This document shows, one piece after another, positions 41,622 to 42,626 of a DNA stretch of 64,000 nucleotides (position 1 is its first letter; each line of letters opens with the position of its first letter). The notes below the pieces were generated by a model, which saw only the letters and a program-made list of their open reading frames with translations, had not been told where the DNA came from and did not search any database. Origin of the DNA: Octopus sinensis (taxonomy: Eukaryota); NCBI RefSeq assembly GCF_006345805.1, contig NC_042999.1:22382001-22446000 (forward strand), read 5' to 3'. Made by a program: the position numbers and the translations under genes.

Positions 41622-42622
41622 GTCCTCGTGTTGTATACATTCGAAGCTTTTTCCAGGGGATCTAATGCGCTTGGCTTAGATTTCCTTGGCGGGCTGCCCA
41701 TATCGGAGCAATCTCAAGATTAATCAGCCGAAATTGCTAAGATGATCTGGTTCTTGACTGATGACTGAGGGCTTCGAATGTCCCGTCCTGTGGTTCTTGT
41801 GTCGTCTCTGTGGTGTTTCATGTTCTTGTCCATGTCTGTAATTATTTTTACTGTTTACCTATATAATCGGCGGCTACGTATCCACAATTGTCCTTATACG
41901 ATAAGTATATTTTTTCTCTAGCATTGATACGACTCTTAATCTGTCTCTTTCTCTCTCTCTCTCTCTCTCCTCCCTTATTCCCCTTCCTTTCTTTCCCCTC
42001 CATCCGTCTTCCCCCCCCCTTCTACGTTTCTCTATCTCTCTCACCTCCAGCCCCCTCGATCTGTCTCTTTCTTCTCCTCCCTCGTCCACCTTCTCTCTTT
42101 TCATCTGTCCCTTTCTCTGTCTTTTGTTCTCACGTGACCGCTAGCCGCTGTTGAGCGCTCTTTTCGTTCCAGCAGCCGCCGAAGCAACACGTATTGTTCG
42201 TCTCCTTGCGGCCATTAGGCACAACTTCACAAGCCAGCCCCATACTCAACTCGTCCTGTCGAAAGACCCTTGTCCTACGTCCTGGTTTCGTTTTGTTTTT
42301 TATTTTTACCGTTATTGTTTTTACGTTTTTGTTCTTATTGGTGTCACGTATTCTGTATTTGTTCGTGTACTTCGTTCGTTTTCCGTCCTCTGTTGTATAC
42401 ATTCGAAGCTTTCTTCCAGGGGATCTAATGCGCTTGGCTTAGATTTCCCTTGGCGGGCTGCCCATATCGGAGCAATCTCAAGATTAATCAGCCGAAATTG
42501 CTAAGATGATCTGGTTCTTGACTGATGACTGAGGGCTTCGAATGTCCCGTCCTGTGGTTCTTGTGTCGTCTCTGTGGTGTTCATGTTCTTGTCCATGTCT
42601 GTAATTATTTTTACTGTTTACC

Positions 42623-42626
<4 letters not shown>
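41622..42626 (+). mobile_element. Non-coding ~1-kb element with ~240-bp direct terminal repeats (pLTR-like), flanked by (AT)n
   Basis: 41622-41865 is nearly identical to 42385-42626. No ORF. A related fragment lies on the minus strand at ~4960-5113. Confidence 0.8.

Follow-up and report, generated by a model that had tools for sequence, protein, structure and literature searches.

A young retrozyme-like element in Octopus sinensis carries a predicted split-core, SGC-order hammerhead that is likely to cut its own RNA

Eckert et al. (2023) divided the hammerhead ribozyme into three blocks, S, G and C, assumed these blocks to be uninterruptible, and validated ribozymes of the permuted type SGC by showing that they self-cleave in vitro (PMC10085705; this paper and the retrozyme and Naiad papers cited below are represented here by excerpts). 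The examples of type SGC in those excerpts come from metatranscriptome and metagenome contigs, known genomes having yielded no more than a single weak candidate, of type GCS; one of the SGC examples, HRIMA-1, takes one extra base between A9 and G10.1. A single extra base is tolerated at this point in natural hammerheads. Metazoan non-LTR retrozymes are non-coding tandem units of ~225–350 nt with one type I hammerhead per unit, for which a circular intermediate and a Penelope-type mobiliser have been proposed (PMC7229834), and the excerpted text of a retrozyme preprint likewise describes the use of type I models (bioRxiv 10.64898/2026.07.22.740005). Naiads, which target (TA)n and form partial tandems, were reported to be without canonical hammerheads; one of them, Naiad_Ovul, was marked 'HHR_half_core' (Craig et al. 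2021, PMC8557442).

We analyzed a window of 64,000 nucleotides of Octopus sinensis DNA (RefSeq assembly GCF_006345805.1, contig NC_042999.1, positions 22,382,001 to 22,446,000), in which a first-pass annotation had described a pLTR-like repeat with hammerhead parts in a non-canonical order. The insertion, at 41622–42622 of the plus strand, is flanked by (TA)n runs and consists of ~1.3 laps of a 764-nt non-coding unit, which we call family A. It contains two direct repeats of ~238 nt, offset by 764 nt: a 5′-truncated lap (41622–41859) that starts 92 nt before the predicted cut and holds a whole ribozyme, and a second repeat (42385–42622) that carries the element's fixed 3′ end together with another intact ribozyme (42399–42545, predicted cut 42477/42478). 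Between the two repeats lie an internal TATATA (41860–41865), where copies of the family stop and pass into genomic (TA)n, and a pyrimidine-rich non-coding spacer (41866–42384). No protein coding was found in the element, where ATG-initiated frames reach at most 47 codons on the plus strand and 90 on the minus strand. When circularized, the unit folded no better than 20 shuffles (z +1.0), giving no sign of a rod-like circle, and no second ribozyme core was found on its minus strand.

A DNA search of the genome returned 1,526 candidate family A loci, the best 40 of which were at 98–100% identity, and a 25-nt anchor from the family occurred exactly 1,032 times. The genome holds ~1,030 near-identical copies, and the family is young. 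In every one of 40 mapped loci (34 distinct places, chosen for containing the whole repeat or the spacer) the array had its 3′ end at unit position 146–152, while the 5′ ends varied and the arrays ranged in size from a fraction of a unit to more than three ribozyme copies. Because the 3′ end is fixed and the 5′ ends vary, we interpret the direct repeats as an over-run lap, as in the pseudo-LTRs of Penelope elements; the description as pLTR-like is apt if taken to mean a partial tandem of the Penelope kind. The repeats are nevertheless a tandem lap rather than LTRs, and the element encodes no protein. The internal TATATA is likely to be the priming site, and an internal TA motif also terminates related tandem families, which have units of 690–860 nt.

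Family A therefore combines traits of two kinds of element. As in non-LTR retrozymes, it is made of non-coding tandem units that each carry a hammerhead, and a circular intermediate and a Penelope-type mobiliser can likewise be proposed for it; unlike the metazoan retrozymes in the excerpts of PMC7229834, its unit is 764 nt long and its core is knotted and not of type I, so the type I descriptors of the retrozyme studies, as far as the excerpts describe them, would miss it. As in Penelope-like elements, it has partial-tandem pseudo-LTRs, a fixed 3′ and a variable 5′ end, and an AT-rich target; an ORF for a reverse transcriptase (RT) with a GIY-YIG domain is absent from the element, and a longest-frame scan found no related ORF beside copies of subfamilies A–D. 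The first-pass annotation had also noted a diverged relative at ~5060–5113 of the minus strand. That relative is real, and we place it as a 5′-truncated relic of subfamily B (5021–5114, minus strand, core at 5086–5080), which starts 3′ of the cut, is missing the cleavage-site strand, and sits behind a TA run and a repeat that we take to be SINE-like.

The ribozyme RNA is 150 nt long, and all of its parts lie on the plus strand. It is enclosed by a closing helix, P0, formed by 41637–41651 and 41767–41781. Immediately 5′ of stem II stands a bridging hairpin, P5 (41653–41689), followed by the 5′ strand of stem II, displaced upstream (41692–41696, with G10.1 at 41692), which is predicted to pair with 41725–41729 as ggctg/cagcc. 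The 5′ strand of helix IV (41698–41705, pairing with 41743–41750), a counterpart of the SGC 'I' helix that joins stems I and II, precedes the segment 41708–41713, which supplies a strand of stem III together with U16.1 (41712) and C17 (41713). The predicted cut falls at 41713/41714, directly before the stem I strand 41714–41719. Further downstream, 41725–41737 contains the 3′ strand of stem II, GAAA (41730–41733) and the second strand of stem III (41708–41712 paired with 41733–41737), and 41752–41764 contains the partner strand of stem I (41752–41757) and the CUGAUGA core (41758–41764). These hammerhead motifs and the pairings of stems I and III, which the first-pass annotation had reported for both direct repeats, are all present in both, the second set 764 nt downstream, and the enclosing helix and extra hairpin that it had described correspond to P0 and P5.

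The core has the letters of a hammerhead (CUGAnGA, GAAA, UH and an A15.1–U16.1 pair), and stems I–III are arranged around it with covariation, stem II covarying solely between families. In 18 aligned representatives C3–U4, A6, G8–A9 and C11.1–GAAA were invariant, while position 7 was U, G, A or C; position 17 was C, A or U but never G in 19/19 representatives. No GAAA lies within 63 nt 3′ of CUGAUGA and therefore no fold of type I, II or III is available, in agreement with the earlier claim that the order falls outside these types. The further claim that the order might be undescribed does not stand: the block order of cleavage site, GAAA and CUGAnGA is that of type SGC, and this UH–GAAA–CUGAnGA order is already published under that name (PMC10085705, excerpts). 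What is supported is a permuted hammerhead missed by standard searches, argued for by covariation of stems I and III, by the fixed core letters and by the pile-up of 5′ ends at the cut described below; an Rfam scan gave no hammerhead, and no match at the element, among the 150 of 239 matches listed. The computed minimum-energy fold differs from the ribozyme fold (z −1.7), by a method that is unable to model pseudoknots.

Motifs this short could in principle have come together by chance within an AT-rich repeat, an explanation that we consider negligible. A UH–GAAA–CUGAnGA descriptor with a minimum length of 4 bp for both stem I and stem III found exactly 2 sites in the window, compared with 0.01 per shuffled window (100 shuffles). 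Genome-wide, a generic spaced-core pattern gave 4,266 matches versus 31 with reversed-pattern controls, and a second spaced-core pattern gave 1,263 matches versus 0 in controls. Chance assembly would also leave the covariation unaccounted for. When 15 copies representing subfamilies A–E (B–E having been reached by following diverged matches, and unrelated families by the generic spaced-core pattern) were aligned by sequence alone, 90.3% of cells paired and 10/38 pairs had changed on both sides. None of 500 shuffles reached the covariation score, a control that relatedness among the copies may inflate, and slid controls paired in 15–42% of cells. Changes on both sides affected 4/6 pairs of stem I, 1/5 of stem III and 4/8 of helix IV, so that stems I and III both covary.

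The first-pass annotation had left stem II ambiguous between tcag/ctga and the upstream ggctg/cagcc. This choice separates the wiring that we propose from an ordinary type SGC ribozyme, in which CUGAUGA would run contiguously into stem II through ctga (41765–41768) and tcag (41724–41727), with two unpaired bases before GAAA. The contiguous helix forms 4/4 pairs in families A and C but 1/4 in family B; across A–E it is paired in 67.8% of cells with no change on both sides, compared with 98.7% for the upstream strand. It also lacks the G10.1–C11.1 pair, and two of its bases (41767–41768) are taken by the closing helix. The upstream pairing is thus the one that survives comparison, and we consider an ordinary SGC fold very improbable in family A. 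Within A–E stem II is without covariation; changes on both sides appear only between families, and were counted on motif-anchored positions because MAFFT failed to align divergent families outside the core. Among 19 representatives, hand-picked as one per subfamily and with the stem II partner strand chosen by best match, the A–E, F, Naiad and REL families have different upstream helices, with G10.1–C11.1 in 18/19, and in 0/19 does the base directly after A9 pair with 11.1. The upstream strand lies 20–21 nt ahead of U16.1 in the A–E, Naiad and REL families, F being the exception. A single 5-bp stem II match in the range searched is not rare by chance (P 0.08–0.36 per sequence where 5/5 pair); the argument for the upstream strand rests on this fixed spacing and the G–C closing pair.

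On the predicted pairing, the wiring of family A is that of type SGC opened circularly at A9/G10.1. Stem II takes its 5′ strand from further upstream, and the break is rejoined through P0 and P5, which together bridge A9 to G10.1. By eye, the same order recurs in several families: A9 is followed by the 3′ strand of the closing helix, whose 5′ strand leads through the hairpin to stem II. A hairpin equivalent to P5 can be recognized by eye in the F, Naiad and REL families. The junctions of closing helix, hairpin and stem II are gapless in F and REL, include two mismatched bases in A, and are weak in Naiad. In the F families a stem II of 3–4 bp that is contiguous but for one extra base is also available, a point in favor of the ordinary SGC fold there and possibly a sign of an intermediate or a switch. 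In these families (L141–L170, L182, L184) the strands of the closing helix and of stem II are so alike that their partners are interchangeable and either fold, split or plain SGC, can form. This likeness suggests duplication of stem II as the origin of the split arrangement.

Compared with HRIMA-1 and its variants as described in the excerpts of PMC10085705, family A shares the S-G-C order, a short linker between stems I and II, the core letters, a 5-bp stem II closed by G10.1–C11.1, and an extra helix tying stems I and II together. It differs at the point of opening: in SGC ribozymes CUGAnGA leads directly into stem II, with one extra U, whereas in family A the chain is opened at A9/G10.1 and the 5′ strand of stem II comes first. 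Block C is thus interrupted, with no stem II strand within 1–2 nt after CUGAnGA, and the uninterrupted alternative is available in the F families only. The setting differs too, in that the published examples are environmental contigs and those described here are animal retroelements. Minimal hammerheads, as far as excerpts of the literature describe them, share with family A the extra base at 9/10.1, the G10.1–C11.1 pair and a proposed cycle of cutting, circularization and over-copying, but are unknotted and act as dimers.

A kink-turn consists of a 3-nt bulge followed by tandem G–A pairs, set between a canonical and a non-canonical helix. By eye, the bulge of 3 nt and the tandem GA pairs between helix IV and stem III fit this pattern (41705–41743; G41706–A41707 opposite the bulge 41738–41740 and G41741–A41742), and GA/GA is retained in most families, family C having U at 2n. 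The extra helix of family A would thereby run on into stem III across the predicted kink-turn; the word 'kink' is absent from the Eckert et al. supplement. The predicted bend could resolve a geometric puzzle raised by Eckert et al. for those SGC forms in which stem III is joined directly to the I helix. In a search that covered subscription literature thinly and bioRxiv preprints apart from their supplements, we found no paper describing a hammerhead with a split core or a kink-turn, or ribozymes of this kind in Naiads or retrozymes. What seems to be new is the setting in animal retroelements, together with the break at A9/G10.1, the displaced stem II strand, the junction that bridges the break and the predicted kink-turn. 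A two-helix insertion at A9/G10.1 far exceeds any that we found described, and this counts against the explanation that we favor.

If the template RNA is cut after C17, new copies are expected to have 5′ ends at nucleotide 1.1 or a few bases later. We collected short copies from 27 distinct family A loci in which TA joins the element within 30 nt of stem II, among 100 of 751 matches listed. Among these listed matches, 24/27 start at the cut or up to 11 nt 3′ of it (12 positions), seven of them exactly on the cut (six identified by script and one with a 1-nt linker deletion), and 3/27 start in the 19 positions upstream of the cut (+1, +4 and +14). With an even spread assumed and microhomology ignored, binomial p is ~1e-7 for the 24-versus-3 split and 2e-5 for the peak. 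All 27/27 of the listed loci reach the usual 3′ end region; the largest bin of 5′ ends among them, 6/27 at −7, is a TA microhomology, and TA microhomologies upstream hold one copy each. Minus-strand counts per 30 nt, apparently one per locus, were 41 downstream, 92 around the cut (of 511 minus-strand anchors) and 19 upstream, a peak followed by a drop rather than a steady decay. Among the matches listed, inspection by eye found 19/20 loci fitting in the wider A–E group, which overlaps the family A set (3 exact), and 31/32 in the F group (5 exact); for the Naiad relics 7/13 fitted (p 0.09), a weak footprint. Because shortened copies throughout the genome begin at the predicted cut site, self-cutting of the RNA in the animal is likely.

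The same fold might instead be conserved without cutting, as a site for protein binding or recognition by RT, with the 5′-end pile-up marking a place where transcription starts, a protein cuts or RT stalls. The cut is read through in the majority of family A copies, as such a fold would allow, and the faint footprint of the Naiad relics points the same way, as does the one Penelope system studied in vitro, that of Anolis, where ribozyme cleavage is dispensable for insertion and no RNA ends were observed at the ribozyme site (PMC11167929). However, the letters retained are exactly the catalytic ones, position 17 is never G, and a sharp edge at nucleotide 1.1 recurs in groups that differ in sequence. 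A stall is further disfavored because RT would have copied the 3′ strand of every stem, I to IV, before it reached the linker, and little structure should then be left to stall it. We consider a non-cutting fold unlikely; the footprint may, with low probability, stem from transcripts that start, or are cut by a protein, at this very base.

Judging from sequence, we are therefore rather confident that family A is a young, non-coding, retrozyme-like element with a split-core hammerhead in SGC order, which likely cuts itself after C41713 and is predicted to contain a four-way junction and a kink-turn. We lean towards, and hold less firmly, a wider reading: a natural hammerhead wiring outside the six block orders, with a core built from four separate strands and clamped by the four-way junction and the kink-turn, that works in vivo, is common to non-coding retrozymes, Naiads and REL-endonuclease retrotransposons of animals, and has its cut recorded in the 5′ ends of short copies.

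In the mechanism that we propose, transcripts of tandem copies would be cut by the ribozyme to the 764-nt unit length, and the cut unit might circularize, as in animal retrozymes. A borrowed Penelope-type reverse transcriptase/endonuclease would nick (TA)n and start synthesis at the internal UAUAUA, which lies ~146 nt 3′ of the cut. If the RNA has been cut, synthesis would run off there and yield a copy of ~135–146 nt; from a multimer that is still uncut, or from a circle closed by re-ligation, it would read through and yield partial tandems like 41622–42622. The helices that would keep the two sides of the cut in contact may favor re-ligation. For the Anolis Penelope element, priming within the RNA at AT-rich targets has been shown (PMC11167929), at a non-homologous site, whereas here priming would occur at a TA microhomology.

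We identified no autonomous partner of family A among the Naiad-RT and GIY-YIG loci that we compared with it. In the published excerpts the 3′ ends of Naiad_Obim and Naiad_Ovul show the same ribozyme layout as family A, the layout is visible by eye in other published Naiad ends, and a tail found in the genome with the generic pattern is identical to that of the published octopus Naiad consensus. As Pfam gave no match for the Naiad and REL fragments, the label 'Naiad' rests on this identity of the tail and on peptide likeness to the published consensus, judged by eye. The layout also occurs at three further loci (L178–L180), two of which place it directly behind decayed REL-endonuclease-like frames. 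We take these two frames to be REL-endonuclease remnants of a HERO-like element.

Family A could be the end of a Naiad retrotransposon, detached by deletion, and so no independent family of retrozymes. The fold is present 1.0–1.6 kb downstream, on the same strand, in 10/20 Naiad-RT loci (20 of 38 matches fetched), and octopus Naiads share with family A a preference for (TA)n and the formation of partial tandems (PMC8557442, excerpts). Yet family A has no ORF and no sequence similarity to the Naiad tail in either direction, nor to the REL families, the layout alone being common to it and Naiad; and cephalopod Naiads were reported, in the same excerpts, to be long inactive, in keeping with the mostly broken state of the 38 matches here, whereas the best 40 family A copies are nearly identical. 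A Naiad derivative is thus improbable, and we retain the reading of family A as a retrozyme-like family in its own right.

By eye, we take the 3′ ends of Naiad_Mmer and of the entry preceding it to resemble the pistol ribozyme. In the excerpted supplement of PMC8557442 these ends are without a hammerhead core, and Naiads may use more than one ribozyme class. Young elements with a C-terminal GIY-YIG domain and open frames of 700–800 codons also occur in the genome; in 25 such loci neither of two patterns detected a hammerhead belonging to the element, and none of the loci resembled family A in sequence, although their 3′ ends may extend beyond the sequence examined. Within the window, a sub-threshold Pfam match marks the GIY-YIG end of a Penelope-type ORF at 3533–3976 (minus strand), whose relatives elsewhere, with open frames of 700–800 codons (L318–L322), have no hammerhead pattern in ~1.3 kb of 3′ sequence.

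If the proposed wiring is correct, non-circular permutations of the hammerhead extend from anonymous environmental contigs to high-copy animal retroelements, the assumption that CUGAnGA must abut stem II is broken, and the scoring of Naiads as hammerhead-free is explained. The pile-up of 5′ ends bears on whether Penelope-type ribozymes cut the transposition template in vivo; it can be checked in any assembly and, if true, lets the activity of a ribozyme during past transposition be read from DNA alone.

Several other repeats accompany the element. Fold-back insertions are found at three loci (L040, L098 and L108), and in L098 the junction of the arms coincides with the predicted cut. Copies of a minimal hammerhead repeat of the Penelope-end type lie at 40071 (plus strand) and ~42760–42830 (minus strand); the latter, in which the core is changed, adjoins the family A element across a TA run. 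A retrozyme-like array spans 54417–57536. Its 547-nt units stand in tandem, one set of them inverted, and each has a CUGAUGA...GAAA motif (54648, 55742 and 56288 on the minus strand, 56650 and 57193 on the plus strand). A 185-nt tandem repeat family occupies 20809–21848, where its units are 99–100% identical, and 50105–50589. A long perfect hairpin at 6071–6240, with sub-threshold microRNA-like Rfam matches, is probably an inverted repeat insertion, and a weak 5S rRNA-like match (32 bits, sub-threshold) at 29694–29809 heads a repeat. At 60901 (plus strand) and 60570 (minus strand), two canonical minimal type I hammerheads stand head to head with the same stem II letters as families A–E, which hints at shared ancestry or convergence.
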